Below are positions 22,163 to 55,432 of a stretch of DNA of 64,000 bases, piece by piece (within the stretch, counting starts at the first letter, position 1; the number at the start of each line of letters is the position of its first letter). The DNA comes from a virus. Taxonomy: Duplodnaviria > Heunggongvirae > Uroviricota > Caudoviricetes. Location of the stretch: IMG/VR virus record IMGVR_UViG_3300035502_000495; one strand, given 5' to 3'. The translations under genes were made by a program, and so were the position numbers. The notes below the pieces were generated by a model, which searched no databases, was not told the DNA's origin, and saw only the letters and a list, made by a program, of their open reading frames with translations.

Positions 22163-22183
22163 TCAAAAGGAGAATAAGAAAGT

Positions 22184-22498: not shown

Positions 22499-22519
22499 AA
22501 TTAATAGAGGATTTATTAT

Positions 22520-22633: not shown

Positions 22634-22682
22634 AGTTCTAAATAATTTAATATAATAAAATATACAAGGCTTTATAATTTGC

Positions 22683-39606: not shown

Positions 39607-40403
39607 TTAAACAGATTATGCTACCTTCTCCCATCTGTTATGGAACCAACTAGTTTTTATTTTATAAACTATTTTAAATAAATAAAATAGAACTCGTTTA
39701 ATTTTTTCTTTTTATTATATAAATATTATAATATATATTTTATTAAAAATCAATTAAGAATTGTAGCAATTTTTTTATAACAGAAAACTGCTAAAAACTG
39801 AGAAAGTGGAAAGAAAAAGTAATAAATTATTTTAATAAAATCCTACATACCTACAGACGAAGATTATAACTTCATTTTATTTTAATAATACGTGCTATTT
39901 ACACTAGTCTGTTTTATGGAACGATTTTATTTAAATTGTGCAATACCAGTATTTGCACCACGGTATTCAGGCACCCGTGTTTTCGTCGACTCTGGATATC
40001 CTGCCTTCATTCGTCATTATTTAAAAGGAAAAGAAAATGACAACCAAACCTACATTCACCGATATTTCGGAATATATCCTCTTGATATATTAAGTCACTC
40101 TTGTTCTGGGAAAGAGAACCTTCGACAGAATTTACTTATCTCTATTCTAGTTTCGAAATAAGCATCATTCTATCTATTGCTACGCATCAGAATTGAACTG
40201 ATTTAACCAAGCTTATGAGGCTCGGTGAGATATCCAACCTCCCGCCAGCTATATTTAATTTGATTATTTTGTATGTCAAGCAATGTTATCATCATAAAAG
40301 TTATTTTCTAACCACGTTTACTTTCAAATTGCGTTAAGTCTTTAACTACCTTTGCTTAATAAAGGTGCTATTATTAAATAGCTGTTGGTTGACAAAGCCA
40401 AAT

Positions 40404-40475
40404 AGCGTGTATGGGATTCGGACCCATGTAACTACCTTGAAGGGGTAGCTTCTGACACCACTCGAATAACACGCC
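40404..40475 (-). tRNA. tRNA-Glu (UUC)
   Basis: Acceptor GGCGTGT/ACACGCT, anticodon stem CTACC/GGTAG loop CCTTCAA, T arm ATGGG-TCCGAAT-CCCAT (C55). Confidence 0.6.
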
Positions 40476-40909
40476 AGATTAATGGCACTTTATTTTATAA
40501 GGTGTGCCTACCTTAAAAAGAGAGGGTTAAACAAAAATTTTTCTGTCTGTATTGCTCTTGTAAGATTTGAACTTACATTAAAGTAATAAACTTTTGTCTT
40601 ATCATTAAACGAAAGAGCATTTGCAAGTGCCTCGAAGAGAGCTGCTAAAAATCTAGGCTTTGATATTTGGACTTGCAATCTTTGGGGTAATGTCTTATGC
40701 TTGAGCTGCATTACCCCACCTTCTAAAAAACATTTTATTTATTTATCTTATATAAATATTATATTATATTTTTTTAATAAAATCAATTAAGAATATTATC
40801 TTCCATGAAAGTAATATAGCCTTCGAGTCAGCCAACTGCCAATTTATTGGATTTCAGTGCGTTTATTATTCCTCCCGCACACTTTGGATGACCTATTATC
40901 TAGGTAAAC

Positions 40910-40982
40910 TGGGAAGGTGGGGCTTGAACCCACGACACCACGATTAATCAAAAATTAAGATTTGAACTTAAACCAATTCCCA
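40910..40982 (-). pseudogene. degenerate tRNA-like element (5-nt anticodon loop)
   Basis: Perfect T arm GTGGG-TTCAAGC-CCCAC and 6-bp acceptor TGGGAA/TTCCCA, D stem GTTT/AAAT, but anticodon arm TTAAT-TTTTG-ATTAA; overlaps 3' end of HNH gene. Confidence 0.35.
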
Positions 40983-41585
40983 TTGTTCATCAGTAAAATT
41001 ATTTATATCTTTTTTTCTACTTGGTAAATTTTCAGTTTTACACCATTTAGTAATTGCTTTATCACTAACTCCATATTGTTCTCCTATCTTTGTAAAAGGA
41101 ACTGTTCTAATAAGATGTTTTAAAGTATCTCTATCTGGTCTTTCAACTATTCGAGATTGTTTTTTATAACAATCTTCACATAAACCACTTTTAGAATATC
41201 TTGTAATTTCCTTGCCGCAATTTGAACAAAAATACATTTTTTTATTTTGCAATTGTCCTTTATTTTCTCTTAATTGATTAGCAATATCTTCATTATAAAC
41301 TTTATACTTATATAATTCTTCCTCAGAAAAAAGTTTATCGTGAATTTCTCTATGGCAATTTGCACAAACTAAAATACATTTTTTTATTTCTGCTAAATCT
41401 TTTTCTAAATCATGGCAAGTTCCATTAGAAGAAATACCATATAATTTTTCTTCAGCATTGATATGATGAAATTCTAAAGCTGAATTAGTTTTATGATAAC
41501 CACATATATTACACTGATTACCACATACCTTAATTAAATTATCTTTTCTTCTTCTTCTATAATTACTTGTTTCTGTTGCACCCAT
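40968..41585 (-). CDS. HNH endonuclease (homing-endonuclease-like) with C-terminal HTH
   Basis: VCGNQCNICGYHK...LEFHHI...VCANCHREIH HNH motif; AAAGGAG RBS before internal Met at 41585 (ORF track start 41681 overlaps a tRNA fragment). Confidence 0.65.
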   Translation of the reverse strand: MGATETSNYRRRRKDNLIKVCGNQCNICGYHKTNSALEFHHINAEEKLYGISSNGTCHDLEKDLAEIKKCILVCANCHREIHDKLFSEEELYKYKVYNEDIANQLRENKGQLQNKKMYFCSNCGKEITRYSKSGLCEDCYKKQSRIVERPDRDTLKHLIRTVPFTKIGEQYGVSDKAITKWCKTENLPSRKKDINNFTDEQWELV

Positions 41586-41680
41586 ATTTTTCACTCCTTT
41601 ATTTTTCATACTGTATATGAAAAATAAACCGATATGATTAATTACTGTTGTCCAATGTTCATTTATGCTACTTAACACCA

Positions 41681-41720
41681 TTTTTGCACAGTCGTGTGCT
41701 CATACCAACTGAGCTACATC
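41681..41720 (-). pseudogene. tRNA 5'-half fragment (acceptor + D arm only)
   Basis: Minus strand GGGATGT-AG-CTCA-GTTGGTA-TGAG-C... then no pairing anticodon or T arm; lies between two promoter motif copies and the HNH gene. Confidence 0.4.
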
Positions 41721-41943
41721 CCAAAATTTCAAACAAGACACTTTATTTTTAAATTAAATTAATAACTATTACTTTTAAATATAAATTTGATATTCTTTTT
41801 AAAAATTGCAGTATGTGTCTTTATTTTTTCTTTTGTTTTATTATATTAATATTATAATATAATTTTTTATTAAAATCAATTAAGCACTTTTGATAAATTA
41901 TTTTTTTCTTTTTGTTTATATAAATATTATAACAAAAATTTTT

Positions 41944-42273
41944 TTAAATTTCAAATATTTTATAATTATAATGAAGAAGCAATTCTTTAATATTTTTATA
42001 TCCAACTAGATTAAAACTATGGCACTCAAAACCATCAATTTTAATATTATTTGCAACAATATACTTTGCTAAATCATATCCAGTCTTTTTTCCGCCTAAA
42101 TCATGGTCAAAAGCTACAAAAACAGTTCCATCTAGCTTATTATCTTTAACTTTATCTAACCAATCTTTGGCTTGATTATAAGTTTTACAAATTATTATTT
42201 CTTCAAAAACTGATTTCATCTTCTCTGGAACTGCTCTTTCATCATCAATCCATAATAAATATTTCCATTTCAC
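41944..42273 (-). CDS. CheY-like receiver (REC) domain protein, stand-alone
   Basis: YLLWIDDE... acidic pocket, FDHDLGG, conserved Lys; 109 aa. Confidence 0.35.
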   Translation of the reverse strand: MKWKYLLWIDDERAVPEKMKSVFEEIIICKTYNQAKDWLDKVKDNKLDGTVFVAFDHDLGGKKTGYDLAKYIVANNIKIDGFECHSFNLVGYKNIKELLLHYNYKIFEI

Positions 42274-42356
42274 ATAATCACTTCTTTCTTTTCTTTATAT
42301 AAATATTATATCAAAAATTTTATATAAAATCAAAAGAAAGAAAATAACTAAATATT

Positions 42357-42941
42357 TTATTTAAATTGATGTTGCTCTATTTGAAGGCGACAACCTTTTA
42401 CTCGTCTGCTAAAAAAATAATAATCATTCATTTCATAATAATTATTATTATAATATATTAAAGTATTTCCTTCTAAAACATACATAGCTGCCTCTAAACA
42501 TTCTTCTGGCAATTCCCCATTATCATATAGTTTTAATGCTTTATTTAAATTTCCGTCTGTTACAGGAGTAAATTGACCAGATTGATAAATTACATCATGG
42601 ATTGAGTTTTCAAAAATCTCTGAATTAACTCTATTCATAACCACAATACCTACAGCTTGCTGTCCAGCTTCGCATTGATTGCCAGCTTCCGCATAAATAA
42701 TTGATGCCATATATCTTAAATCTTCTGCATCAAAATCAACTTCCTCTTGTTCTGTATTTTCTTCTATTGTTTCTTCTTCATTAGTTTCTATTTCTATTAT
42801 TTCTTCTTCTTCAAAAGCAGTATCTTGTATTAAAGATTGAAAATCTACTACTTCTATTTGTAAATCTTGTGTTGGCAAGGGATTAAATAATGATAACACA
42901 AAACTCATTACATTAATTCCTAAAAAGTATTTAATTTTCAT
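42357..42941 (-). CDS. secreted SleB-like cell-wall hydrolase (Hydrolase_2 family)
   Basis: Signal peptide; YMASIIYAEAGNQCEAGQQAVGIVVMNRV...IYQSGQFTPVTDG matches SleB motif ArvIyaEA...gq.aVa.VvlNRv...QFs. Confidence 0.6.
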   Translation of the reverse strand: MKIKYFLGINVMSFVLSLFNPLPTQDLQIEVVDFQSLIQDTAFEEEEIIEIETNEEETIEENTEQEEVDFDAEDLRYMASIIYAEAGNQCEAGQQAVGIVVMNRVNSEIFENSIHDVIYQSGQFTPVTDGNLNKALKLYDNGELPEECLEAAMYVLEGNTLIYYNNNYYEMNDYYFFSRRVKGCRLQIEQHQFK

Positions 42942-43068
42942 TAGTTTGTTTTCTTACCTTTCTTCTTAATGTTTTGCGAAATTTCTCAAAACCTATACAA
43001 GAACAAGTAGAAAATAATTAAAAGCCAAAAAATATTATTTTCTATAGTACAAGACTAAATATTTCTGT

Positions 43069-43338
43069 CTATTTCCTTTTAGTACATTTCTCCCAATAAT
43101 TTAAAAAATTTTGTTTATCTGGATACATTTCTCTAATCCGAGATAAATTCTCATAGTCTTGAATAGCTTGCTCTCTAGTCCAGACTTCTTTCCACGTACT
43201 ACAATGCGGTTTGAGCCGCCTATACGCTCCTCCGTCTGGGATTTCCGCAAGTTTATCGTGTCTAAGTTTTCGATTAGATAGACGATAATCCTCTTTCTCT
43301 TGAATGACGATTGGAAATTTTTTATAAGACCTACTCAT
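43069..43338 (-). CDS. hypothetical protein
   Basis: 89-aa ORF in minus-strand array. Confidence 0.3.
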   Translation of the reverse strand: MSRSYKKFPIVIQEKEDYRLSNRKLRHDKLAEIPDGGAYRRLKPHCSTWKEVWTREQAIQDYENLSRIREMYPDKQNFLNYWEKCTKRK

Positions 43339-43379
43339 ATATAATACCTCCTTAAAAGTATTACATAATAATCACTCCT

Positions 43380-43931
43380 TTATTTCTCCCATTGGTGTCT
43401 TACTTTTCTTTGGGTTTTCCAATTTTTTTCAACAGTAGTATAGTTCCACTCTTCAACTTCTTTGTGACTACCTCTATTGTATTTTTTATACTCTGGATTA
43501 GCATACATAGCTAATAAAGCTTTTTTATGATTATGCGGTGATTCATCTTTCCAACCCCTAGATTTATGAATCCCCTCAACAGGCTCTCGCCTAAACATGC
43601 CTTTATAAATACGTTTTTTAACCCAATAAGAACGTTTCTTATTAATATAAGATGGTTTATTTTTTAAATATTTTATAAAATAATCCCAAGCCTCATTACG
43701 ATATACCTGTGGAGTAATTCTTCTTCCATGTCCATCCCAATATTCATAATTGAGTCTATTGTTAAAATACTTATCACAAAATAATATAGAATCATAAAAT
43801 GAGCCTTTAAAGCCTTCTGCTAAAAAAGCAATTAGTTCTTTTTCATTATTAAATTTTTGAATTTTATATTGATGCTTCCAACCTATTTCATAACCTACAT
43901 AAATAGCATCGTCATTCATTATATTATACAT
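43380..43931 (-). CDS. hypothetical protein
   Basis: 183-aa ORF, W/Y/K-rich. Confidence 0.3.
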   Translation of the reverse strand: MYNIMNDDAIYVGYEIGWKHQYKIQKFNNEKELIAFLAEGFKGSFYDSILFCDKYFNNRLNYEYWDGHGRRITPQVYRNEAWDYFIKYLKNKPSYINKKRSYWVKKRIYKGMFRREPVEGIHKSRGWKDESPHNHKKALLAMYANPEYKKYNRGSHKEVEEWNYTTVEKNWKTQRKVRHQWEK

Positions 43932-43975
43932 AGTAATTCTCCTTTATTTTATTTTACTTACTTACTACATATAAA

Positions 43976-44048
43976 TAGAAAGTCTGAGATTTGAACTCAG
44001 CATCTCTGGCGTATCAGACCAGTGTACTAACCAACTATACTAACTTTC
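43976..44048 (-). tRNA. tRNA-Ile (GAU)
   Basis: Acceptor AGAAAGT/ACTTTCT, D arm GTAT-AGTTGGTTA-GTAC, anticodon stem CTGGT/GCCAG loop CTGATAC, T arm CTGAG-TTCAAAT-CTCAG. Confidence 0.7.
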
Positions 44049-44258
44049 TATAATCCCAAAGATTTAAGCGGCATCTCTATACTTGGGTAGTTTTATATGG
44101 ATTTCGCCATAGGAAAGTTTTATTTATATACGTTCTTGAAAAATATCTGCTTAAAGTAGATATCCCGCATCCGCACTCTGCAGCCATAACGGCACCAGTT
44201 TTAAAGACTTCTGGATTGTCTGCTGATTATAAAATAATATTACAAGTTTTATGAAAAA

Positions 44259-44549
44259 CTAAATAATAAAATTAGCCTTTCTTGACATGGAATTTATCCA
44301 ATTTTTATATTTTCTTTCATCCTCTTGTTTATCCCAAGAGTAGAGTAAGACATTCTTTTTAAGATTGTAACTAATATGACTTGCATTAAATGTTTCTTTT
44401 AACATCAATACAAAATCTGCGGGAGCCATGCCTAAAAGGCGACATGGCAACCACCAATTATTAGAGCCGCCAGCTAAATTTTCCACATCTCCGCAGTGCC
44501 AACGTCCAATACCATCTTCCCATTCATTACACTTATATAAGTGACTCAT
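44259..44549 (-). CDS. hypothetical protein
   Basis: 96-aa ORF. Confidence 0.3.
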   Translation of the reverse strand: MSHLYKCNEWEDGIGRWHCGDVENLAGGSNNWWLPCRLLGMAPADFVLMLKETFNASHISYNLKKNVLLYSWDKQEDERKYKNWINSMSRKANFII

Positions 44550-44866
44550 TACTGTGTTAAACCTAACTTTGCACAGAGGTCTGCAACTGCTTGCTTCTCT
44601 TCTGCGGTTGGTTCTGCTACAGAAGTTTTCGTAACTGGAGTTGAAGCTGATGCTGCCTTAGTTTCACTTAATACTGCAACTCTGCTATCATTTTCATCAT
44701 TCTCAACATTGGTTTTCGCACAAGTCAGAGTAACTTTTATTTGGACTGGCTCTCCATTCTCAAGGACTGGAATACGTATCTCTTTATCATACTTAAATGA
44801 ACCCTGAAATGTCTCAAGAATTTTTGCGATTATTTCTTCCTTTGCTATACTTCCTTTTGCTGCCAT
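44549..44866 (-). CDS. hypothetical protein
   Basis: 105 aa; start overlaps previous stop. Confidence 0.3.
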   Translation of the reverse strand: MAAKGSIAKEEIIAKILETFQGSFKYDKEIRIPVLENGEPVQIKVTLTCAKTNVENDENDSRVAVLSETKAASASTPVTKTSVAEPTAEEKQAVADLCAKLGLTQ

Positions 44867-44891
44867 AATTATTTCTCCTTTATTTTATTCT

Positions 44892-45437
44892 TTAAACTTC
44901 TTTGTGCATTTTAAAAAATACTGGAACGCCCATAAGCTCTGTCGTATTTTCATATCTACAATCTCCAAGATTAGAAACTATATTAGCCTCTCCTACGGTA
45001 TCTGAATCTGCCGCCCAATAAGATGCTGCTGGAGTATTTGATTCGTGCCTTCCTTTTATTCTAGCTAAATTTCCATATAATTTATACCAAGCAAAATATT
45101 CATTTTTATTTTTCCTTTCATCAGTCCCAAATAATTGACAGATATCTGGAATAAATAAATAATCTATATCTATTAATGTATTTTCATCAAAAAATATTAT
45201 ATTATTGTAGCTACCTGTATTATAAATTTCTATTAAAATATCTATAATATGATTATAGTCAGATTTCACAAATATTTCATCAAAAGAAAAAAAATAATCA
45301 TTTTTATCTATATGAACACATGTACATGGGTGACCACCAATAAAAATTCTGCCTCCAACTGAAATATCATCATCATTAATCATCTTTTGTAATAAAGATT
45401 TATTTCTTTGTGTTTTCTGCTTAGGATATGATATCAT
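44892..45437 (-). CDS. hypothetical protein, paralog A of 49266..49820
   Basis: About 60% identity to ORF 49266..49820 over the full length (HPCTCVHIDKNDYFFSFDEIF, IDYLFIPD, GVPVFFKMHKEV shared). Confidence 0.5.
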   Translation of the reverse strand: MISYPKQKTQRNKSLLQKMINDDDISVGGRIFIGGHPCTCVHIDKNDYFFSFDEIFVKSDYNHIIDILIEIYNTGSYNNIIFFDENTLIDIDYLFIPDICQLFGTDERKNKNEYFAWYKLYGNLARIKGRHESNTPAASYWAADSDTVGEANIVSNLGDCRYENTTELMGVPVFFKMHKEV

Positions 45438-45503
45438 TACTATTATTTCTCCTTTATTTTATTATATAAATATTATAATATATTTTTTATTTAAAATCAA
45501 TTA

Positions 45504-46328
45504 TTATTTATTTTTTTTAATCATAATATTTTTATCTTCTAAGGTTGCCGCTAAGTGTTCAATAGCTTCACATATTCTACAGCTTTTACATTTTTGACAG
45601 CGTTTTCCACACTTAATTCTATATTCTGCAAATTGCGGCAATATAAATCTACTATCAAGAGTGTCATTATTAAAACTTAAAATTACTTCACTAAGCTTCC
45701 CCATCCATTTCTTATCTATAGCATAAATTTTATAATAAGTCTCAATCGAATCTTCCTTACCAAAAAATTCCATTACATCTACATATGGTTCATATGTATC
45801 TATATCATCAGGACGAATAAAGAATTTTTTTAATGCGGGAGTGCCGCTCCATATGGATTGAGCTACATTTGGAAATACTCTTATCTTGATCCCCGCGCCA
45901 TGAAGTAAGGCTGCCGCTTTATCTATTTCAAATCCCATATCTTCTACTAAATATACATCTGAAGGATTTAACTCCATGATTCCATGTAAAAAATCCCAAT
46001 TATTTACAAAGTCAGAAAAGAAGTATTTATGCTTTATTTCATTCTCTTGTAATAATTGCAATAATTCTTTAACATTATTTTCTTTACAATGTCCTAATAA
46101 AAAGGCAAAGTTAATCTCTGGATGTTCTATAGCTATTGCATTAAAGATTTTTATGCAATCATGAGCAATAAAATCATCTGCGTCTTGAATTGATATAATA
46201 ATTCTTTGATTAGAATGAAGTAACATAAAATCTAATAATGATGCATCTGTTCTACGGAAATTAATCTTTATTTCATCTACATCATTGATATATTTAAAAT
46301 TTCTTTTATAGTCTACGCAATATTTCAT
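45504..46328 (-). CDS. hypothetical protein with C-terminal Cys cluster
   Basis: 274 aa; C-terminal CGKRCQKCKSCRICE. Confidence 0.3.
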   Translation of the reverse strand: MKYCVDYKRNFKYINDVDEIKINFRRTDASLLDFMLLHSNQRIIISIQDADDFIAHDCIKIFNAIAIEHPEINFAFLLGHCKENNVKELLQLLQENEIKHKYFFSDFVNNWDFLHGIMELNPSDVYLVEDMGFEIDKAAALLHGAGIKIRVFPNVAQSIWSGTPALKKFFIRPDDIDTYEPYVDVMEFFGKEDSIETYYKIYAIDKKWMGKLSEVILSFNNDTLDSRFILPQFAEYRIKCGKRCQKCKSCRICEAIEHLAATLEDKNIMIKKNK

Positions 46329-46387
46329 CTTTTTTCCTCATCAAAAATAAGGGATGGTGTTTGCCATCCCTAAATTTTCAGTTCTTA

Positions 46388-46768
46388 TTAAGCCAGCTTG
46401 TAAGCAACGACCTTTCTGCCATCTGAAGTCTTAATGGTATCTTTTACTACTGTTTCAGCCTTAACTAGCTGTGCAAGTCTTGCAACAATCTTAGCCTTAG
46501 TAATACCCTCACCATCAATCTGCGCAGTAATGTCATCTGCTGACTGAAGCTCATCTGTTACCACTGAAAGAACAACTCCTCTGAGTTCATCTCCCTCAGC
46601 TTTCTTCTCAGCAGCCTTCTCCTGTGCCTTAGCCGCCTTTGCGTCAAGTAACTCTACCTGTTTATCAATAAAAGCAAGAACCTCGTCCTTTTGCTCGCTA
46701 TCTGAGTTCTCAACAATTCCCTTAATAATAGCATAAAACTCTTTCTTTGTAGTCTTTCTGTCTGCCAT
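46388..46768 (-). CDS. small DNA-binding-like protein (paralog of 63119..63517)
   Basis: Shared architecture and motifs with ORF 63119..63517 (DxLAFI..ELL, C-terminal KLV..GEVV...KKA). Confidence 0.35.
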   Translation of the reverse strand: MADRKTTKKEFYAIIKGIVENSDSEQKDEVLAFIDKQVELLDAKAAKAQEKAAEKKAEGDELRGVVLSVVTDELQSADDITAQIDGEGITKAKIVARLAQLVKAETVVKDTIKTSDGRKVVAYKLA

Positions 46769-46854
46769 CTTAAAAATCTCCTTTTCTTTAAATTATTAAT
46801 TTTCATTTCTTTATGTATTTATTATATCAAAAATTTTTTCAAAAATCAATCCTA

Positions 46855-47067
46855 TTATTTAATCGCCCTTGTAATTTTTTTTATCTCTGCTTGGGAGAGC
46901 GTTGAAGCTGCAATCCCGCACTCTTCACATGTTTGATAAAAAACCTCTTCAGGCATAGATGAATATGGATAATTTTTAACTTTTTTAATTATCTTTTGTA
47001 TTTTACTTTCTCTTGTATCTAAGTATCCTTCAGCCTCTGCCATATAAAGTCCATAATCTATATTCAT
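46855..47067 (-). CDS. hypothetical protein
   Basis: 70-aa ORF. Confidence 0.25.
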   Translation of the reverse strand: MNIDYGLYMAEAEGYLDTRESKIQKIIKKVKNYPYSSMPEEVFYQTCEECGIAASTLSQAEIKKITRAIK

Positions 47068-47069
47068 AA

Positions 47070-47345
47070 TTACATACTTTCTATTAAAAATGTTTCTAAT
47101 TGAAGAATACCTTTTTCAATCCAAGTTACTGATAAAACTTCACAATCATAAGCAGGTGACTCATAAGCATCTGTAGAAGTAATAATATAATCTGTAATAT
47201 TTTTATTTTTTAAAAATGACTCAACAAAATCACTTAGACTTAAATCTTCATTATTATATTTACAATAATAACCTTCTGTAAGATATCCAGCCTTTTCTAT
47301 TTCATTATATAATTCGTTTACAAATTTTGATTCTATTCTTTCCAT
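47070..47345 (-). CDS. hypothetical protein
   Basis: 91 aa; promoter motif copy upstream. Confidence 0.3.
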   Translation of the reverse strand: MERIESKFVNELYNEIEKAGYLTEGYYCKYNNEDLSLSDFVESFLKNKNITDYIITSTDAYESPAYDCEVLSVTWIEKGILQLETFLIESM

Positions 47346-47407
47346 ATTATTATTCCTTCTTTTCTTTATTCTTTATATAAATATTATAATAAAAATTTTA
47401 TATAAAA

Positions 47408-47614
47408 TCAATAATTATATTTATTACTAACAAAATATTTATATTTTTTAGGCTGTAGCTGTCTATAATAATAATTATCTATAATTGCTGACTCATGAAT
47501 ATCTATAAAACCGCTATGATAATAAGGCTGCCCTTGTTTATCTTTAATATAATCTATAAGAGTTTCAATATTGTTTATTTCTTTTATCATTTTTTGAATT
47601 TCTTCACTTGCCAT
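47408..47614 (-). CDS. hypothetical protein
   Basis: 68 aa; promoter motif copy upstream. Confidence 0.25.
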   Translation of the reverse strand: MASEEIQKMIKEINNIETLIDYIKDKQGQPYYHSGFIDIHESAIIDNYYYRQLQPKKYKYFVSNKYNY

Positions 47615-47772
47615 ATTATCTCTCTCCTTTATCTTATATAAATATTATATAATAAATTTTAATAAAAGTAAAGAAATGATAAAATTGATTTAAAAATTGC
47701 CAAAAGGCTATTTCATTCCTGCACGCGGGTGTTTACTGCCCTAGCAGATAAAAGAAAAAAAGAGCAAATTTA

Positions 47773-48015
47773 TTACTCTTTTTCTTCAAAATTATTCAAA
47801 TATAAATCAAAACTATATGCAGTCTCTGGATATTCTACTTTAAAACCAGTTGATGTATCAAATGTCATTAATCCTAATATTGATTTTCCATCAACTGTAT
47901 ATCTTCCTTTAGTGCAAAGAACATTTCCATCAACTTTTGATGCCTCTCTAATAAAAGAGGTTATATCTGAAATACCATTAATTTTAATTGTTTTATTTTT
48001 CATATTTTCCTCCAA
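47773..48015 (-). CDS. HPr/Crh-like phosphocarrier-fold protein lacking His15
   Basis: KSILGLMTFDTSTGFKV aligns with Crh/HPr KSIMGLMSLAVSTGTEV (Ser46 region conserved); His15 position is Ser (GISDITSFIREASK vs GIHARPATLLVQTASK). Confidence 0.6.
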   Translation of the reverse strand: MEENMKNKTIKINGISDITSFIREASKVDGNVLCTKGRYTVDGKSILGLMTFDTSTGFKVEYPETAYSFDLYLNNFEEKE

Positions 48016-48044
48016 AGAAATAGGGCTTAAACAAGCCCCAAAGA

Positions 48045-49262
48045 TTAATTGTGATATTTAAGTAAAAACTCGTTACTAACTGCTTTGAAACTTTTAGTTC
48101 CGTCTTGAGAGCGGAATACCAATCCTTCCCGCATACCGCCATCGATTGCGGAATCCGCAGTTGCAATATTAAGTAACTCTTCAACCGTATCAGGCAAAAT
48201 AAATTTCTCATCTACTATTGGCACCCAAGGGATACCATACTCTGCCATAATAGCTGCTGCTTCTACAGAATTTAAACGTCCTCTATCAGAGAAAATAAGA
48301 TTAAATCCTGCAAACTCATGTTCTTTAAGAGAATATTCACGCTTTTGAATCCCAGCTCCATAGGTTTCTCCTTGTAAAGTTGCCCACTCCAAATTATATT
48401 TCTCTACTAAATCACCAAGCACATCCTCAAAATGATACTTTTCAGACATCTCGGTATATGGATTAAAATCATAGTAGCAATTCTTATCAGGTTTATCAAA
48501 TACTACATTACGTGAGCAGATAAAATAATCATGCTTCTTTCTTCCAGTTTTTCGGTAAGTAGCTGTTGTTGAGCTGCCATCAATTTTCTCTGTAGCAATC
48601 CATTCTGACTTATCATTTAAAATCCATGACATGCACTGGACCCGCTCTTCATCTGTTTTCTGGACCCATGTAGGCCATGCGGTCTTCTTATCTTTCTTCT
48701 TACCAAAGAAGAAAAACATCACCTTTCTGCCCCACTCTCGTCTCATCATCCATTTTGCCCATGATTTCTTAAATATATCAGGTCTACGTTGAGACATTTT
48801 CTTATATTTGTCCTCAGAATTTGCCTTACGCCTATTATCTTCCTCAGCAGAATAAATAACTTTAAGTTCTTTAGTTAAAAATCTTGATTCATCATCTATT
48901 CTATGAATTTCTCCACTATCTGGAATTATAATAGCATTATCATCATACTTAGTCCAACCAAAATCTAAAGGATGCATAAGCAAACCTTGTGAAACGAAAT
49001 TTCCAGCTCCGCCAAATGTATAGCGTTGAGTCTTAATCTTATAATGCTTCTTTTCAAGGAACGCAAAAACTTCTGTCTCTGGTACTTTTGAGTCTATCTC
49101 AAAATATACTCCAATCTCACCTCGCTGGAAGGTATTTTTCTTGACCATAATCTGCCAACCGCCTACAACCGCGGCTTCGCAATTATCTGAACCCTTAATA
49201 GGAATAATCGCGTCTATTTTCACCAAGTACGCGAGCTCTCTTTCTTGTCTCTCGTTTAACAT
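48045..49262 (-). CDS. RNA ligase (Rnl5/DraRnl-like, N-terminal extra domain)
   Basis: Motif I ATEKIDGSS (KxDG), motif IV/V REGLVFRS...KSFKAV; about 200-aa N-terminal domain preceding the nucleotidyltransferase core. Confidence 0.6.
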   Translation of the reverse strand: MLNERQERELAYLVKIDAIIPIKGSDNCEAAVVGGWQIMVKKNTFQRGEIGVYFEIDSKVPETEVFAFLEKKHYKIKTQRYTFGGAGNFVSQGLLMHPLDFGWTKYDDNAIIIPDSGEIHRIDDESRFLTKELKVIYSAEEDNRRKANSEDKYKKMSQRRPDIFKKSWAKWMMRREWGRKVMFFFFGKKKDKKTAWPTWVQKTDEERVQCMSWILNDKSEWIATEKIDGSSTTATYRKTGRKKHDYFICSRNVVFDKPDKNCYYDFNPYTEMSEKYHFEDVLGDLVEKYNLEWATLQGETYGAGIQKREYSLKEHEFAGFNLIFSDRGRLNSVEAAAIMAEYGIPWVPIVDEKFILPDTVEELLNIATADSAIDGGMREGLVFRSQDGTKSFKAVSNEFLLKYHN

Positions 49263-49265
49263 TCT

Positions 49266-49820
49266 TTAAACCTCCTTATGCATTTTAAAAAATACTGGAA
49301 CACCAATAGTATCATCAGTTTTTATTATATAATCATCTTGACCTGTGCTACTGACTACCATGCCATATCCAAAAGTATCATCATTACTTGTCCAATATGG
49401 TATTAATTTTTTAGAAAGATAATCTCCTTTCACTCTTGCTAAATTTCCATACCTTTTATACCAAGTAAAGTGCTTATCTTTATTTTTTTCTCCCTCAGTT
49501 CCAAATAATTGATAAGTATCTGGAATAAATAAATAATCTATATCTTTTAGTGTATTTTTATCAAAAATTGCAATTTTATTATATACTAAGCCTGTATTAT
49601 AAATTTCTGTTAAAATGTCCACTATATCGTCCCATAAAACTTTAGCAAATATTTCATCAAAAGAAAAAAAATAATCATTATTATCTATATGAATACAAGT
49701 GCATGGATGATGACAAATAGCAACTCTATCTCCAACTTTTACATTATCACCATTAATTAATTCTTGTAATAAAGATTTTTCATCTTTTTCTCTAACATCT
49801 CTATCAGGATATTTCAGCAT
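49266..49820 (-). CDS. hypothetical protein, paralog B of 44892..45437
   Basis: See paralog A; immediately upstream of the RNA ligase gene. Confidence 0.5.
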   Translation of the reverse strand: MLKYPDRDVREKDEKSLLQELINGDNVKVGDRVAICHHPCTCIHIDNNDYFFSFDEIFAKVLWDDIVDILTEIYNTGLVYNKIAIFDKNTLKDIDYLFIPDTYQLFGTEGEKNKDKHFTWYKRYGNLARVKGDYLSKKLIPYWTSNDDTFGYGMVVSSTGQDDYIIKTDDTIGVPVFFKMHKEV

Positions 49821-50230
49821 TATATATAGCCTCCTTCATATAAATTATGCGGAAGCTCGGTCATATGCTCGGGAATCGGGACCTTCCGCCAATCAACTTT
49901 ATCTTCTCTTGGCTTCTCATTCCGCCAAACATCTAAATCATCTACGATAAAAGTATTCATTATATCCATTGTTAAGTTCCAATTAATAAAAGGATTTGTT
50001 TTGAAATAATCTAAAGGATAATTTTTATAATATTTAGTCTTTTTATCATAAACTCTTAATATAACATAAAGAATACCACCTGAGCCATCTCGAAATTGCT
50101 CCCATCTTGCTTTAACTTGCCTTACTACGAAACGTCCTCTCCAAAGGTCGTCGTTTTCACAGACTTTATTAAGTTCTCTAATCTTTTTATTTAAAGCGTG
50201 TTGATAAGATTTCTCCATTTTGTTCCTCAT
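49820..50230 (-). CDS. hypothetical protein
   Basis: 136-aa ORF. Confidence 0.3.
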   Translation of the reverse strand: MRNKMEKSYQHALNKKIRELNKVCENDDLWRGRFVVRQVKARWEQFRDGSGGILYVILRVYDKKTKYYKNYPLDYFKTNPFINWNLTMDIMNTFIVDDLDVWRNEKPREDKVDWRKVPIPEHMTELPHNLYEGGYI

Positions 50231-50244
50231 ATTATTCCCTCCAA

Positions 50245-50529
50245 TTATTCATAAACTTCATAATCCTGCATTTCTAAATATGCTATATCTTCAAATTCAA
50301 GAGGCTCTTCTCCTGCGTCATCTTCTTCATCAATAGTTCCATTTAAATTATAATCATCTACATCAAAAGCTCCATCCGCACGTTCCATTAAATATTTCTG
50401 CTTATCAACATCATTATATAAACTACTCCAGTTATTTAATCCCATAGCACAAAGAAAGTCTAATTTAATCTTTGCTGTTAATAAATTATCTAAATCCTTT
50501 TCATCTATAATGTACTTTTTTGCTAACAT
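50245..50529 (-). CDS. acidic hypothetical protein
   Basis: 94 aa, D/E-rich; promoter motif copy upstream. Confidence 0.3.
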   Translation of the reverse strand: MLAKKYIIDEKDLDNLLTAKIKLDFLCAMGLNNWSSLYNDVDKQKYLMERADGAFDVDDYNLNGTIDEEDDAGEEPLEFEDIAYLEMQDYEVYE

Positions 50530-50619
50530 TTAAAATTCCTTCTTTCTTTTTATTTTATATAAATATTATATAATAATTTTTAATAAAAAACAATTAAGAG
50601 TAAAACTCTCGCTTTACTC

Positions 50620-51435
50620 TTATAGTTCTTTAACTTTCATCTTTTCGTTCATTACATCATATAAATCAACAGCAGAAGTATTATATAACATTAACTGACG
50701 CGGATTCTGGTATGTAGGAACGCCTATCTGACGTGGATATTCCCTAACTGCATGATAATGTCCCCATAATATAGCTTTATAATTCATTTGATACTCAATT
50801 TCACCTAAATACCGCTCCATAGTTTTATCTACAGTTGACTGGTCTAAGTTAAATATAAATAAATCAGTAGGCTCAAATGCAATAGGGCAAGTATGGGATA
50901 AAATTAAATCACATTCATAATTCATTTCTTTTATGAGGTCTTTTCCCATTTCCATTTCTTGGGCGGAAAGCTGTTCTGTAGGATTCCAAGTCCAGCCCAT
51001 CATCACACGATAATATTTATCTACAGAGTATCCACCTGGCACTATTAGTGTTTTATAATGTTCTCCATTATAAGGAATATGATAAATATTTACATAATCC
51101 ATAGCATATTTAATATATGGATAATCATTTTCTACATATACATAACTACCCCAAAAAGGTTCTAGGTGCCATTCTGTAGGATGCTTTATAGCTTGTTCTG
51201 AGGCACGTAAATCGTGGTTCCCGCGTATTATAAAAAAAGTAAAAGGAAATTTACCTAAATGTTTCTTTAACTCTTCATCTCGTTTATTCTCAAAGAAAAG
51301 AATCCCCGCATCACCCAGTATAATCATTGTTTTATCTGCTTCATTATACTCTTGATTAATATTGTGGCGCTGATGAAAATTTCTTATATATTTCCAATCT
51401 CCATGTAAGTCTGCCATTAAATATATTTTATCCAT
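50620..51435 (-). CDS. calcineurin-like metallophosphoesterase
   Basis: MADLHGD, GDAGILF, RGNHD, WGHYH motifs. Confidence 0.65.
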   Translation of the reverse strand: MDKIYLMADLHGDWKYIRNFHQRHNINQEYNEADKTMIILGDAGILFFENKRDEELKKHLGKFPFTFFIIRGNHDLRASEQAIKHPTEWHLEPFWGSYVYVENDYPYIKYAMDYVNIYHIPYNGEHYKTLIVPGGYSVDKYYRVMMGWTWNPTEQLSAQEMEMGKDLIKEMNYECDLILSHTCPIAFEPTDLFIFNLDQSTVDKTMERYLGEIEYQMNYKAILWGHYHAVREYPRQIGVPTYQNPRQLMLYNTSAVDLYDVMNEKMKVKEL

Positions 51436-51436
51436 A

Positions 51437-51634
51437 TTAATTGTTCCTTTTGAATTTATTAAATTTTTTACTATTTACTCCATTCTGGCACCCTCGACAA
51501 ATTTCATGCTCATTACATTCATTAAGACAACACGCATACAAACTATCCTTCATATTAAATAATTCACAACAAATTTTACATTTTTTACCACATTTTAAAT
51601 AATGTTTAGGCATAATTTCATCAAAATAGCACAT
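51437..51634 (-). CDS. cysteine-rich zinc-finger protein
   Basis: 65 aa with about 12 Cys (CGKKCKICC...CCLNEC...CRGC). Confidence 0.4.
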   Translation of the reverse strand: MCYFDEIMPKHYLKCGKKCKICCELFNMKDSLYACCLNECNEHEICRGCQNGVNSKKFNKFKRNN

Positions 51635-51715
51635 TCAATTTTCTCCCTTTTATTTTTAATATAAATATATTATATCAAAAATTTTTATAAAAATAAAGGC
51701 GAAATTTCTTATCGT

Positions 51716-52027
51716 CTATCCTTTATAATGTATTTTATTAATATTTTCTATTGTTAATTCTTTTTCTTTATTTATTTGTTCTATTATTTGCTCTTCACTA
51801 GGAAAAACAAAATAAATACATTGTGAGTTACTATAAGAATCTCTCATATTTTCCAATGCCTTCATTCCATACTCTTCTTTTGAATAACTTGCAATTGTAA
51901 CATAAAGTGCTCCTCCAACGCAGGCAGAAACTGCGCAACATTCATTATGTAGTTTTGTAAGTAATTTTACTATAGTATTAGAACCATATGCAATATCAAT
52001 ATTTTTATTCTGAGATAAAAGTCTCAT
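51716..52027 (-). CDS. hypothetical protein
   Basis: 103 aa, HNECCAVSACVGG motif. Confidence 0.3.
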   Translation of the reverse strand: MRLLSQNKNIDIAYGSNTIVKLLTKLHNECCAVSACVGGALYVTIASYSKEEYGMKALENMRDSYSNSQCIYFVFPSEEQIIEQINKEKELTIENINKIHYKG

Positions 52028-52031
52028 ATTC

Positions 52032-52259
52032 CTACCCTCTTTCTTTCCATTCTCTTAAATCACAAAGAGGCTCATCAATCATACTCATATGACAAATAAT
52101 ATTACAAATAAGATTAATGACCTCTTCTTTTTTAGAAGTGTACAAAATAATATTATTTTTATTAGTCAAAAGATTAAAATTATTATGCTTCTTTTTTATT
52201 TCTAATTTATATTTATCTAAATCTATAAGATGCAAACCATCTTGGCTAATTATCTGCAT
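52032..52259 (-). CDS. hypothetical protein
   Basis: 75-aa ORF. Confidence 0.25.
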   Translation of the reverse strand: MQIISQDGLHLIDLDKYKLEIKKKHNNFNLLTNKNNIILYTSKKEEVINLICNIICHMSMIDEPLCDLREWKERG

Positions 52260-52536
52260 CTACATCATCACCTAAATCTTCTTTTACAGTTTCATCATTA
52301 GGAAAAAGAAATGAAGGTTTTTCAGCCATTCCCGCAAGATTAAGTATTTTCATTACATAATCCCTATGCTCAATTGTAGTATATCTCCCCAAAAGAAAAG
52401 AACAAGCAGGGGTCATTCGAGCAACTATTTGATATGGATAATCTTTATCTTCTTGTGACATTCTATTACGTACACATTCTATAAAACTTAATTCATATGG
52501 TATATTTACCCTATTATCATAACTTATTAATCTCAT
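52246..52536 (-). CDS. hypothetical protein
   Basis: 96-aa ORF. Confidence 0.3.
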   Translation of the reverse strand: MRLISYDNRVNIPYELSFIECVRNRMSQEDKDYPYQIVARMTPACSFLLGRYTTIEHRDYVMKILNLAGMAEKPSFLFPNDETVKEDLGDDVDADN

Positions 52537-52554
52537 AATAAATCTCCTTATTTA

Positions 52555-53232
52555 TTAATATCTACTCATTATATAACTTTGTGAGTCTATTATTTCTGAC
52601 ATTGACATTTCTCTGCCCCAATGGATTGATGAATTGTAGTTTCCTTCTGCGACGATTACCGAGTTTTCTCTTACTTCCAATACTGTTACTGAATGTGTGT
52701 CGTTGTAAACTCTTAGCATATCGCCAACCTTTATGTTGCTGTAGTCCTTATGGATATAAGCCTTTGCGTTCCCAAATGCCTTGTCGCTTACGTAGAAGCA
52801 AAATGCTGCACAGCCAAAACCGCCTACATATATTCCACCGTTCCACTCATAGTAGTCATCATTTGTCCAGTGCATCCCCTCTGGAAACACTGATTTCTGT
52901 GCCATAATTATATTATAAACTTCTTGCTGTCTATTGTCGCTTAATCCATCTTTTTGTATATAAAGAATTTCATTATTAATTTCTACTTGATAATAATTAT
53001 TATTAGTAATTCCTATTACTAAAATAGGAATATTTTTATCTATATCATCACTACTTAATATCATTGTATTTTCATCAGCTTCACTAAAAAAGCATGTTTT
53101 ATCATTTGTGTAAAGAATATCTTGCATATCTGTAATTGTATATTCCGCGGCTTTCAATGGCATTAAAAATCCTAAAGATAAAAAAATACTAGCAATAAAT
53201 ATACGTATGATAATATAAAATATTCTTTTCAT
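52555..53232 (-). CDS. secreted CHAP/NlpC-P60-like peptidoglycan hydrolase
   Basis: Signal peptide; candidate catalytic Cys in GGFGCAAFCFYV and His in NDTHSVTVLEV. Confidence 0.4.
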   Translation of the reverse strand: MKRIFYIIIRIFIASIFLSLGFLMPLKAAEYTITDMQDILYTNDKTCFFSEADENTMILSSDDIDKNIPILVIGITNNNYYQVEINNEILYIQKDGLSDNRQQEVYNIIMAQKSVFPEGMHWTNDDYYEWNGGIYVGGFGCAAFCFYVSDKAFGNAKAYIHKDYSNIKVGDMLRVYNDTHSVTVLEVRENSVIVAEGNYNSSIHWGREMSMSEIIDSQSYIMSRY

Positions 53233-53333
53233 TTTATTACTCCCCTCACTAAAAGAACCCTTGAGGTTTTATCTCTTTTACTTTATATTTATATTTAATT
53301 GTATAAATTTTATTTATAAGTATAAATATTTTA

Positions 53334-53696
53334 TTATTGTCCTATTAAAGCGGCTGCCGCCTGAATAATATAATCAATAATATCTTGTGCAGTTTGCCCA
53401 GCTACTTTAAGATTATCTGGCGTTACAAGAGAAGCTATAAGCATCTGATAACAAATTTTTTCTGATGGAATTAGTATTGCAAAAACACATAAAAATATTG
53501 ATAATATAAAAAACTTTTTAAACCATTTTTTTATATTTTCTCTTTGCACTTTTGAAAGTTCATCTTCTCCTATAAGGAGAATACCTGCAATAAATGTTAT
53601 AGTGCTACATGCTACACAAGTCCAAATACAAAAATCTTTTAAACAATAACTTATATTTATTAAATAGAATAAGTAAGGTTTTATAAAAGGCTCCAT
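53334..53696 (-). CDS. membrane protein
   Basis: 120 aa, 3-4 hydrophobic helices. Confidence 0.3.
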   Translation of the reverse strand: MEPFIKPYLFYLINISYCLKDFCIWTCVACSTITFIAGILLIGEDELSKVQRENIKKWFKKFFILSIFLCVFAILIPSEKICYQMLIASLVTPDNLKVAGQTAQDIIDYIIQAAAALIGQ

Positions 53697-54080
53697 TTAA
53701 TTATCTCCTTTGCTTTGTTTATAATCACTTATTTGTATTATTGCGGCAGCTTCTTCCTGTGTTAAATCTGGGTCAATTAACATAACAGCTTCATATAAAT
53801 CCATATCTGCAACTGCTGCCTGTCTCATAATTACATATACATCATATTTATCTTTACCTGTTATTTTTACTATTGTTTCAAATAATTCATATGAAATATT
53901 TGCATTTCGACATCTTTCTTCAGTAATAGGACTATATTTCATTGTTGAGGCTAAAAGAACTATTGAAAGTGTAAGTCCTGATAAAGCAAAAACAATCCCT
54001 AATTCATTTTCCTCACTACAAATAAATACTACAATACCTACAAAAATTCCTATAATACAAATTACTTCAACAGTCATCAC
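53697..54080 (-). CDS. membrane protein
   Basis: 127 aa, three N-terminal hydrophobic helices. Confidence 0.3.
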   Translation of the reverse strand: MMTVEVICIIGIFVGIVVFICSEENELGIVFALSGLTLSIVLLASTMKYSPITEERCRNANISYELFETIVKITGKDKYDVYVIMRQAAVADMDLYEAVMLIDPDLTQEEAAAIIQISDYKQSKGDN

Positions 54081-54328
54081 AGGTCTTTATTCTCTTTTCG
54101 TCTAATTCTATCTAACTTTTGTTTACGGTTGTCGGTTCTTGCAGGCTTGGCTCCCGCCTTCTTTTTATAACTTCCGCATGTTTGGCAATGATGCCAGAAA
54201 GTTCCTTCTTTTCCTAAATTACATGAGCCTTCATTAATATAATGTTCGCATACTATCACTCTGTCTTTCATCACTATTACCTCCTGAGATATTTTCATAT
54301 GAAATATAATCTGGACATTCTTTTTCAT
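54077..54328 (-). CDS. small zinc-binding basic protein
   Basis: CEHY...C...HHCQTCG then K/R-rich tail. Confidence 0.3.
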   Translation of the reverse strand: MKKNVQIIFHMKISQEVIVMKDRVIVCEHYINEGSCNLGKEGTFWHHCQTCGSYKKKAGAKPARTDNRKQKLDRIRRKENKDL

Positions 54329-54417
54329 TTATATTTCCAAACATAAATATAAAACATCTTCCTTTGCCGTCATTTAATCCACATTCTAAATTATCACAAT
54401 TCATTAATGACATAATA

Positions 54418-54678
54418 TTAATCTCCTAATGTTATTCTAATATAACAATTACCATTCTTTTTCCCATTATCATCCATATCAGGGAAGCAATCTATAGAGC
54501 CATCTCCTTCGTTGTCTTTTGTTTTAATTAAATGACACTTTAATAAATACCAAGGAACCTCACATGCCAAACCTTCAAAAACAATTTCCCAATCTTCATT
54601 ATCTTTAATTCCTACATTTTGAAAAATTACTAAATTTGTACAACTATCAATATATTTAATTAATTTACCTAATTTCAT
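54418..54678 (-). CDS. hypothetical protein
   Basis: 86-aa ORF. Confidence 0.25.
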   Translation of the reverse strand: MKLGKLIKYIDSCTNLVIFQNVGIKDNEDWEIVFEGLACEVPWYLLKCHLIKTKDNEGDGSIDCFPDMDDNGKKNGNCYIRITLGD

Positions 54679-54689
54679 TTTATACCTCC

Positions 54690-55355
54690 CTATCCTAAAA
54701 AATCACTAAAATCAAGGATTACAGGACGAGTTCCTATATATCCTATATTATCTGTATGTAAATCTGTAATGTTATATTCATATATAAAGTTCATTAGTTT
54801 ATTAAAAGTTTTTAAACCATAATATTCAAAAGCATCTGCTAACCATTCTGGGTCAAAACATCTAAAACAATGCTCTTCGCAATACCTTTTCATTTTAATA
54901 GATTTTTCACTTCTATAATCTAAATCATCACCATTTTTTTCTCTAAAAGTACATGCTCTTTCTTGAATATAAATAGGATAATTATTTATAAAACCTAATA
55001 AACGAGTTTTACAAAAGCACTTATTAATATGTTCTTTTTTAGCTTCATTATAATATGATACTTCTGTAAGGCAATAATCCCAATATGAATGAGTTGTTGT
55101 ATTAGCACCATTAAAATCTTTATAATAAGTTTCTCCATATGGTTTTTCATCATCTAACATTTCTTGTCCTCTAAAAGGAATTTTTATAACATAATCAGCG
55201 CCCATTGGAATAATGCAAACTTTACTTATCCCAAAACTATAGTCATAGCTAAAATTTTCAGGTAAGTTATAAATAACTTGTTCTTCGACATTTTCTGCGG
55301 TAAGAGCATCAAAATCGCAATTTTTAAATAAGTCTAATAAAAAATCTCTTTGCAT
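54690..55355 (-). CDS. hypothetical Cys-rich protein
   Basis: 221 aa; promoter motif copy upstream. Confidence 0.3.
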   Translation of the reverse strand: MQRDFLLDLFKNCDFDALTAENVEEQVIYNLPENFSYDYSFGISKVCIIPMGADYVIKIPFRGQEMLDDEKPYGETYYKDFNGANTTTHSYWDYCLTEVSYYNEAKKEHINKCFCKTRLLGFINNYPIYIQERACTFREKNGDDLDYRSEKSIKMKRYCEEHCFRCFDPEWLADAFEYYGLKTFNKLMNFIYEYNITDLHTDNIGYIGTRPVILDFSDFLG

Positions 55356-55432
55356 ATTTACTCCTTCTTTTTTATTTATATAAATATTATATAATAAATT
55401 TTAATAAAAATAAAGAAAGAATAAAATTTGCA

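Follow-up and report, generated by a model that had tools for sequence, protein, structure and literature searches.

A short, histidine-free HPr-like protein encoded beside an RNA ligase in a large phage

HPr and Crh are central carbon-control switches of Gram-positive bacteria. Crh of Bacillus subtilis, with ~85 aa, has a loop of full length in which His15 is changed to Gln as the single exchange and Arg17 is kept. Ser46 is also kept in the HPr of bacteria without HPr kinase/phosphorylase (HprK/P), where it caps helix 2. Lachnospiraceae and other Firmicutes possess both HprK/P and CcpA. Enzyme I mostly contacts residues 16, 17 and 20 of HPr (PMC8509676), and an involvement of His15 and Arg17 in signalling through CcpA has been described (Horstmann 2007, as cited in PMC3074128 and PMC4591507). 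The His-less, HPr-like Crh is a feature of Bacillus (PMC11906611); it is phosphorylated at serine and acts on CcpA (PMC11906611, PMC4591507). A role of Crh outside CcpA control, in the methylglyoxal bypass, has been described as well (Landmann 2011, as cited in PMC11906611). A literature search returned no paper on the short HPr-like family described here or on phage HPr-like proteins, and no characterised member. The sequence class is already present in databases, where it is mislabelled; as a family it is not described in the literature searched, and the loop deletion, the phage distribution and the non-PTS contexts had not been noted there before. Bc1009 of Bacillus cereus was named 'Hpr-like' (PMC9912610) and is set beside the short family by description only.

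The gene analysed here is located in a stretch of phage DNA of 64,000 nt (the window), which is part of a large phage of at least 140 kb with ~29% GC. The window encodes 14 tRNAs, a topoisomerase II, a DNA ligase, an RNA-repair and tRNA toolkit, a DGR and a SleB-type hydrolase. The features of the locus are compiled in Table 1.

Table 1. Positions of the short HPr-like gene, of its conserved or altered segments and of the upstream RNA ligase gene in the window
Feature	Position	Strand	Source
Short HPr-like CDS, 76 aa + stop: MKNKTIKINGISDITSFIREASKVDGNVLCTKGRYTVDGKSILGLMTFDTSTGFKVEYPETAYSFDLYLNNFEEKE	47773..48003	-	ORF list, public contigs, Pfam, AF2, Foldseek
Ribosome-binding site GGAGG, 5 nt upstream of ATG 48003	48009..48013	-	read from sequence
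Residues 9-13 (N-G-I-S-D), strand 1-helix 1 loop and helix 1 N-cap	47965..47979	-	profile alignment, model
Residues 38-49 (D-G-K-S-I-L-G-L-M-T-F-D), Ser46-equivalent loop and helix 2	47857..47892	-	family conservation
Ser41 codon	47881-47883	-	
RNA ligase, 405 aa, N-terminal OB domain PF21189 and RNA_ligase PF09414	48045..49262	-	Pfam, PHROG
Candidate hairpin (GGGGCUUG-UUUA-AGCCCU) followed by a U-rich tract, within the 41-nt gap	48021..48040	-	terminator-like scan

Gene start and HPr fold

The ORF list contains a minus-strand ORF of 80 aa (47773..48015) that starts with TTG. This TTG (48013-48015) overlaps the ribosome-binding site, and the ATG at 48003 sits 5 nt past the GGAGG. All homologues start at a Met that matches this ATG, and the gene calls of JGI and Logan, which are independent, gave an identical protein of 76 aa on 11 public contigs of up to ~140 kb. 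Because of the GGAGG spacing, the starts of the homologues and the independent gene calls, the true gene most likely encodes 76 rather than 80 aa. The ORF reported in the first-pass annotation therefore exists, but it is likely to be shorter than was assumed.

The protein belongs to the HPr superfamily and has the HPr fold, a solid assignment since three independent lines agree: the Pfam and phmmer matches, a family profile, and the AlphaFold2 model with its Foldseek matches. The Pfam model PTS-HPr (PF00381) was matched with 23.0 bits (E 8e-5), which is exactly at its gathering score of 23. When PDB sequences were searched with phmmer, Crh was the best single-sequence match (E 0.007); residues 15-56 aligned with residues 20-61 of Crh, including KSILGLMTFDTSTGFKV versus KSIMGLMSLAVSTGTEV. 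A profile built from 119 family representatives for a PDB search matched the HPr of T. tengcongensis, the Crh of B. subtilis and many further HPr structures; E-values for HPr and Crh chains were 9e-12 to 1e-10 and, over all structures matched, reached up to 1e-6. The AlphaFold2 model, calculated from an alignment of 8 sequences, reached a pLDDT of 91.9 and a pTM of 0.79. Its secondary structure elements (E2-6, H11-22, E29-32, E35-38, H42-45, E54-58 and H63-69) follow each other in the order beta-alpha-beta-beta-alpha-beta-alpha, as in the open-faced sandwich of HPr. Indeed, the top 38 Foldseek matches in the PDB were all HPr or Crh, with query-normalised TM-scores of mostly ~0.6-0.77 and up to 0.77 for T. 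tengcongensis and other HPr. Three automatically named HPr-like proteins of gut phages were found in BFVD and were compared by structure match only: UniProt A0A8S5S213 and A0A8S5PSI8 gave TM-scores of 0.78-0.79 at 23-28% identity, and A0A8S5S9E0 matched weakly (TM-score 0.63, 10% identity, E 1.7). The likeness to HPr and Crh across the Ser46 region, on which the first-pass annotation was built, is well beyond chance by phmmer (E 0.007), Pfam and the profile. The annotation had also named beforehand what would speak against it, namely the lack of an HPr match together with the lack of a compatible fold; what was found is a Pfam and profile match and an HPr-like AlphaFold2 model.

Loss of the phosphotransfer loop and conservation of the Ser46 face

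The short protein shares with the HPr (PtsH) of Firmicutes the fold, homology at the profile level (E 9e-12) and the Ser46 motif, but it is shorter and lacks both His15 and the G-[IL]-H-[AT]-R-P loop, and no ptsI or EII genes were seen in the neighbourhoods that were examined. In the profile alignment, a gap of five residues lies exactly over 'HARPA' of T. tengcongensis HPr. The HPr loop G-I-H-A-R-P-A is replaced by residues 9-13 (N-G-I-S-D), which contain neither His nor Arg. Helix 1 of HPr begins at residue 16; in the model of the short protein it spans residues 11-22, and Phe17, Val18 and Ala21 match residues 22, 23 and 26 of HPr. In structural terms, the N-cap position of HPr His15 is occupied by Gly10 (in the family T, S, G or N), the position of Arg17 by Ser12 (in the family N, D or E) and that of Pro18 by Asp13. 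The C-terminal helix 3 is shortened and comprises residues 63-69. The deletion takes out the equivalents of His15, Ala16, Arg17, Pro18 and Ala19, i.e. the PTS active-site loop, and the surface with which HPr docks to Enzyme I and CcpA is remodelled in the short protein. The whole 76-aa protein does not contain a single histidine. Among 138 family representatives clustered at 50% identity, which were used for all column statistics, a His in the loop segment was present in 12, without positional conservation. The phosphotransfer histidine is thus absent, as the first-pass annotation had stated, but not by an exchange to Ser at position 15: five residues are deleted over HARPA and the position of His15 is structurally that of Gly10.

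Since it has no His and the loop is deleted, the short protein can neither receive phosphate from Enzyme I nor donate it to EIIA and is not a PTS phosphocarrier; that PTS phosphotransfer is excluded follows directly from the sequence. Public databases suggest otherwise. RefSeq names the bacterial relatives 'HPr family phosphocarrier protein' (e.g. WP_103228794.1), and 'PTS HPr component phosphorylation site' is another public label on relatives. These labels are what speaks for a canonical PTS phosphocarrier that the phage would carry as an auxiliary metabolic gene. Against it stand the missing His, the deleted loop and the TIGR01003 score of 17.6 bits compared to a cut-off of 47.9, and we consider it extremely improbable. 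Judged by their residues, the short His-less proteins cannot be phosphocarriers, and the label is a mislabelling by the databases. Just as improbable is the alternative of a spurious ORF, which is ruled out by the ribosome-binding site, the confident fold, the thousands of homologues and the conserved motif.

The most conserved segment of the family is the Ser46-equivalent loop together with helix 2. Ser41, which aligns with the regulatory Ser46 of HPr and Crh at the N-terminus of helix 2 in both the phmmer and the profile alignment, is present in 135 of the 138 representatives, followed by Gly44 (126/138), Phe17 (122/138), Asp38 (109/138), Gly33 (108/138), Ala21 (107/138), Gly39 (104/138) and Lys40 (104/138). 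The family motif is D-[GA]-K-S-[IL]-[LM]-G-x-x-S-[LI]-D; in the form D-G-K-S-[IL]-[LM]-G-x-[FML]-S-[LI]-D it closely resembles K-S-I-M-G-[VL]-M-S-L of Firmicute HPr and Crh. Hence, selection keeps the regulatory face of HPr, with a nearly invariant Ser41, and because conservation centres on it, this face is likely the functional site. Since Ser46 persists in the HPr of bacteria that lack HprK, the conservation of Ser41 could also be structural and is alone no proof of phosphorylation.

Like Crh, the phage protein is a small single-domain protein with the HPr fold which has no phosphotransfer His and keeps Ser46, and the Ser46 loop and helix 2 are near-identical in both (KSI[LM]GLM..). Unlike Crh, it has only 76 aa, five loop residues including the equivalent of Arg17 are gone, helix 3 is shorter, and its family is clostridial and phage-borne. 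The first-pass annotation had seen the same logic as in Crh with its Gln15. This analogy is partly supported: it holds for the His-less HPr fold and the regulatory serine, but fails for the active-site loop, where the whole loop including the position of Arg17 is deleted and helix 3 is shortened instead of a single residue being substituted. By analogy to Crh, HprK/P could phosphorylate Ser41 and the phosphorylated form could then serve as co-repressor of CcpA, by which the phage would impose catabolite repression. The HPr fold, the lack of His and a Ser46 motif that hardly differs from that of Crh, the best single-sequence match in the PDB, are in line with such a regulator, and Crh itself is a precedent for a His-less HPr paralogue that acts on CcpA (PMC11906611, PMC4591507). 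However, the deleted loop is the one that holds His15 and Arg17, both of which are described as involved in signalling through CcpA (Horstmann 2007, as cited in PMC3074128 and PMC4591507), PRK13782 was matched with only 24.3 bits compared to a cut-off of 123, the family is clostridial whereas Crh is found in Bacillus (PMC11906611), and no carbon-metabolism genes were seen in the contexts examined. A Crh-type regulator is therefore very doubtful. PRK13780 gave 12.6 bits compared to a cut-off of 110 and, like the NCBIfam HPr models PRK13782 and TIGR01003, was missed by far.

What we tentatively favour is a small non-catalytic protein-binding module that would present the HPr regulatory face, with the host HprK/P as the single likeliest, albeit only possible, partner. 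Ser41 would be a substrate of HprK/P or the protein a competitive decoy, and phosphorylation of Ser41 by HprK/P is plausible. In either case, the pool of Ser-phosphorylated HPr could be shifted, and in the infected cell this would alter both PTS flux and catabolite repression. A partnership with HprK/P is more likely than co-repression of CcpA because the contacts made by His15 and Arg17 are missing. Were the phage copies to act on HprK/P or CcpA, this would be a case of viral rewiring of catabolite repression. There are also points against HprK/P. In the 1KKL complex, docking of HprK/P on HPr reportedly also uses the start of helix 1, and it is this part which is remodelled in the short protein, with Asp13 at a place where the surface of HPr is basic or neutral. 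Furthermore, a V-E-Y-P motif (residues 56-59) is conserved in the clade of the window protein; it is absent from HPr and is unaccounted for by the HprK/P model.

Distribution in Lachnospiraceae and large phages

An exhaustive search with profile A2, of which the window protein is the first sequence, gave 2589 representative clusters (50% identity) at E<=1e-3, of which 203 remained at E<=1e-10, and nearly all had 70-85 aa; a word-indexed profile search gave 1703 protein matches. Matches to the giant repeat proteins P0022 and P0139 were inspected, found to be of low complexity and discarded. The longer family members were inspected as well and contained no informative domain fusion, including fusions to nucleic-acid or nucleotide enzymes. 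The window protein has the features of the short His-less family, i.e. its length, the HPr fold, the 5-residue loop deletion and the helix-2 motif, and is a clear member of this uncurated short HPr-like family, which is common to Lachnospiraceae-type Clostridia and large phages. With ~2600 clusters, this HPr-derived family is large; it is conserved across Lachnospiraceae and recurrent in large phages of gut or rumen type. A specific model for it was absent from NCBIfam, PHROG and PADLOC. A role in defence or anti-defence was considered and dropped, since PADLOC had no match to the HPr-like proteins and the bacterial helicase described below matched only the generic DinG model.

The bacterial clade is characterised by C-D-F-D-I-D-V-F-Y-N-R-V-V-I-D-A-K-S-I-L-G-V-L-S-L-D-L, which gave at least 571 genome hits, overwhelmingly in Lachnospiraceae; genera include Hungatella, Lacrimispora, Enterocloster and Lachnoclostridium. 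Its members (WP_103228794.1, WP_215701806.1, MBS6647058.1) have 75-82 aa and share with the phage protein the 5-residue deletion, the invariant [GA]-K-S-[IL]-[LM]-G and 29-33% identity, and both belong to one family by profile. They differ in that the Lachnospiraceae clade has a signature of its own, C-D-F-D-[IV]-[DN]-V-[FY]-Y-N-R, and is without the E-Y-P motif of the window clade. The neighbourhoods also differ: the bacterial gene adjoins a DinG/Rad3-like helicase, and the gene of the window clade has an RNA ligase upstream.

Among viruses, a pattern-limited scan of IMG/VR revealed 46 loci, of which 42 encode full short His-less forms and 1 a truncated short form, while the remaining 3 encode canonical HPr of the HARP or HCRP type. 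A scan of IMG/VR with A1 patterns gave no viral relative. When metagenomes were scanned with A4, most matches were canonical HPr; short forms came to only about five loci, and in none of these was a ligase or a helicase nearby. No homologue was found by tblastn of the protein against the 50,697 phage records of INPHARED, and megablast of positions 40000-56000 against deposited phages gave no close DNA relative.

A Firmicute host, as the first-pass annotation had proposed, is supported by the clostridial distribution of the family, above all the Lachnospiraceae clade, and by the lysins of related phages, which are of Gram-positive type (Amidase_2 or Amidase_3, SH3, glucosaminidase). Because of this distribution and these lysins, the evidence supports a host among the Clostridia of gut or rumen type.

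The phage protein is closer to the short proteins of the presumed hosts (29-33% identity) than to HPr (~17-26% in structural alignments), which is why the phage copy most probably performs or perturbs the function of the host's own short HPr-like protein. This may also hold if the partner is neither HprK/P nor CcpA. The phage protein could then mimic or replace the host protein in the pathway of the DinG-like helicase or towards a metabolic enzyme. In addition to the greater identity to the bacterial short clade (~30-33%) and the shared deletion, the conservation of the bacterial gene on the chromosome is in line with such a mimic. In 72 of 80 bacterial loci, the 6-kb flank contained a Rad3/DinG-like helicase gene, nearly always just downstream, and LysR and sigma-factor genes came next in about 53 of the 80; the five upstream genes tested were shared in none of the 80 loci, which marks the HPr-like gene as the upstream edge of the helicase/LysR/sigma-factor block. 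An analogy is given by the action of Crh on methylglyoxal synthase (Landmann 2011, as cited in PMC11906611). On the other hand, shared descent within Lachnospiraceae, and not function, may account for this synteny, and the gaps between the HPr-like and the helicase gene (99-152 nt in the two loci measured) are not operon-tight. Altogether, a host mimic with such a different partner is unlikely, with a modest chance of being correct.

Neighbourhood of the phage genes

In the window, a gene encoding an RNA ligase, presumably of the Rnl5 type, is located directly upstream of the short HPr-like gene in the same orientation, separated by 41 nt. Six other metagenomic lineages (42-58% identity) have the ligase and the HPr-like gene in the same order, and so do the IMG/VR loci of the window clade (11 of 11); in three of the lineages (L008, L010 and L104) 9-12 nt lie between the two genes. 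Relatives have the gene order MVP-like, Metallophos, ligase, HPr-like, 96-aa protein, Pnk-like kinase and Metallophos_2. In the window, the block of Metallophos, ligase and HPr-like gene is ~35 kb away from the block of MVP, 96-aa-like protein, Pnk-like kinase and Metallophos_2, and therefore the HPr-like gene stayed with the ligase through a rearrangement. L194 has a divergent HPr-like member upstream of a ligase, in reversed order.

These findings could point to a protein that assists or regulates the phage RNA ligase or RNA-repair set as an accessory subunit or regulator, or does so for other enzymes elsewhere. In other viral clades, HPr-like genes are found among genes for NrdD, a guanylate-kinase-like protein, ThyX, NT5C and RecA, so that NrdD, the guanylate-kinase-like protein or ThyX would be candidates there, and in bacteria the Rad3/DinG-like helicase is encoded nearby. 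However, an HPr-like gene was present within 4 kb of the ligase in only 7 of 80 IMG/VR loci with closely related ligases (53-71% identical). Since the other 73 do without it, the ligase is independent of the protein, an obligate ligase cofactor is ruled out, and the HPr-like gene is accessory: it sits in a variable slot just downstream of the ligase gene and is not an obligatory partner. Other ligase loci have in its place the 96-aa protein directly, or homing endonucleases and many small ORFs that are unrelated. Moreover, the ligase-linked phages are one family with a conserved gene order, so that the cases are not independent of each other, domain fusions to such enzymes were not found, and the protein is slightly acidic (net charge -1; family median -3), which is atypical of a nucleic-acid binder. 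An enzyme accessory therefore has a small chance, and is unlikely. If the neighbouring nucleic-acid or nucleotide enzymes were nevertheless the partners, the HPr fold would here be put to a new use.

The gene contexts also bear on the favoured module with HprK/P as partner. They are those of RNA repair, nucleotide metabolism and a helicase, which hints at a role unrelated to carbon control. Genes for HprK, CcpA or carbon catabolite functions were found in none of the contexts examined (window, phage relatives and bacterial loci), and PTS genes (Enzyme I, EII) were not among the annotated neighbours in the window or the related loci examined. Both sides could be joined in a broader view, which we regard as quite improbable: the short His-less HPr-like proteins would be HPr-derived switches, taken off sugar transport, that are phosphorylated by a kinase and signal to nucleic-acid or nucleotide enzymes. 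HprK/P as energy sensor, or another kinase, would phosphorylate the retained Ser46 face, and the targets would be, in Lachnospiraceae, the DinG-like helicase and, in phages, modules of RNA repair or of the anaerobic ribonucleotide reductase. By its own copy, a phage might couple replication and RNA repair to the carbon status of the host or uncouple them from it.

The hairpin in the 41-nt gap folds with -12.4 kcal/mol at a z of only -1.4 and may be a weak terminator or attenuator. Otherwise, the search for structured RNA around the short HPr-like gene gave only a sub-threshold match to SraG, and the downstream intergenic region folded with a z of 0.09. A plus-strand ORF of 110 aa (47729..48061) runs antisense to the short HPr-like gene and is taken to be an artefact.

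Genomic context of the short HPr-like family

The chromosomal loci of Lachnospiraceae (L014, L017 and L020-L099) revealed a gene encoding a Rad3/DinG-like helicase of ~790 amino acids within 6 kb of the short HPr-like gene in 72 out of 80 species, and it was nearly always located directly downstream. The genes upstream of the short HPr-like gene showed no conservation in these loci. Short HPr-like gene and helicase may form an operon in Lachnospiraceae. In other phage clades (L164, L165, L172, L175, L179, L183, which comprises 13 near-identical contigs, L190 and L197), the short HPr-like genes were found within nucleotide-metabolism clusters, together with genes encoding the anaerobic ribonucleotide reductase NrdD, a guanylate-kinase-like kinase, ThyX, NT5C and RecA. 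NrdD was sometimes split by a putative GIY-YIG-like ORF, recognised by eye.

The HPr-like gene and the RNA-repair cluster of the window

The stretch between the stop codon of the RNA ligase gene and the ribosome-binding site of the HPr-like gene contains a hairpin and, directly after it, a T-rich tract. The hairpin folds just marginally better than shuffled sequence (z -1.4), and the element could act as a partial terminator or attenuator. An antisense ORF of 110 amino acids with a GTG start spans the entire HPr-like gene, but since the evidence for the minus-strand HPr-like gene is strong, this ORF is taken to be a by-product of composition.

Comparison with relatives revealed that the RNA-repair cluster of the window is in two pieces (11962-16060 versus 47773-51435). 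A block of Metallophos, RNA ligase and HPr-like genes is located ~35 kb from a block encoding the MVP-domain protein, a 96-aa-like protein, the Pnk-like kinase and Metallophos_2; in the other members the same two blocks are contiguous. The MVP-domain protein has 62-79% identity across the related phages compared.

Further features of the window

The set of RNA and tRNA genes is unusually rich (11962-18065, 34507-44050, 41944-42273 and 48045-51435), comprising 14 tRNA genes, the RNA ligase, which has an N-terminal OB domain, the Pnk-like AAA_33 kinase, two metallophosphoesterases, the Thg1-like tRNA-His guanylyltransferase, YqeY and the cREC_REC protein (coordinates in the table below). The Pfam search gave zero matches for the largest ORF in the table, with 2144 amino acids. 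Besides, the window contains a complete diversity-generating retroelement (20498-24248, plus strand), whose variable and template repeats are 85% identical over 97 nt, and all 15 of the 15 mismatches fall on adenines of the template copy.

Coordinates of features in the window
Feature	Position	Strand	Remark
Metallophosphoesterase	11962-12495		one of two
Pnk-like AAA_33 kinase	12514-13035
Major-vault-protein-like, 840 aa	13538-16060	-	shoulder and repeat domains (MVP_shoulder, Vault_3)
Thg1-like tRNA-His guanylyltransferase	16140-16970
YqeY	17601-18065
Tail-like ORF, 554 aa	20498-22162	+	variable repeat at its 3' end
Variable repeat	22027-22123	+	97 nt
104-aa ORF	22184-22498	+	between variable and template repeat
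Template repeat	22683-22779	+	97 nt
Reverse transcriptase	23007-24248	+	diversity-generating retroelement
2144-aa ORF	24910-31344	-
Cyclic-phosphate-processing receiver domain protein, cREC_REC	41944-42273
Antisense ORF	47729-48061	+
Hairpin and T-rich tract	48021-48040	-
Metallophosphoesterase	50620-51435		second of two
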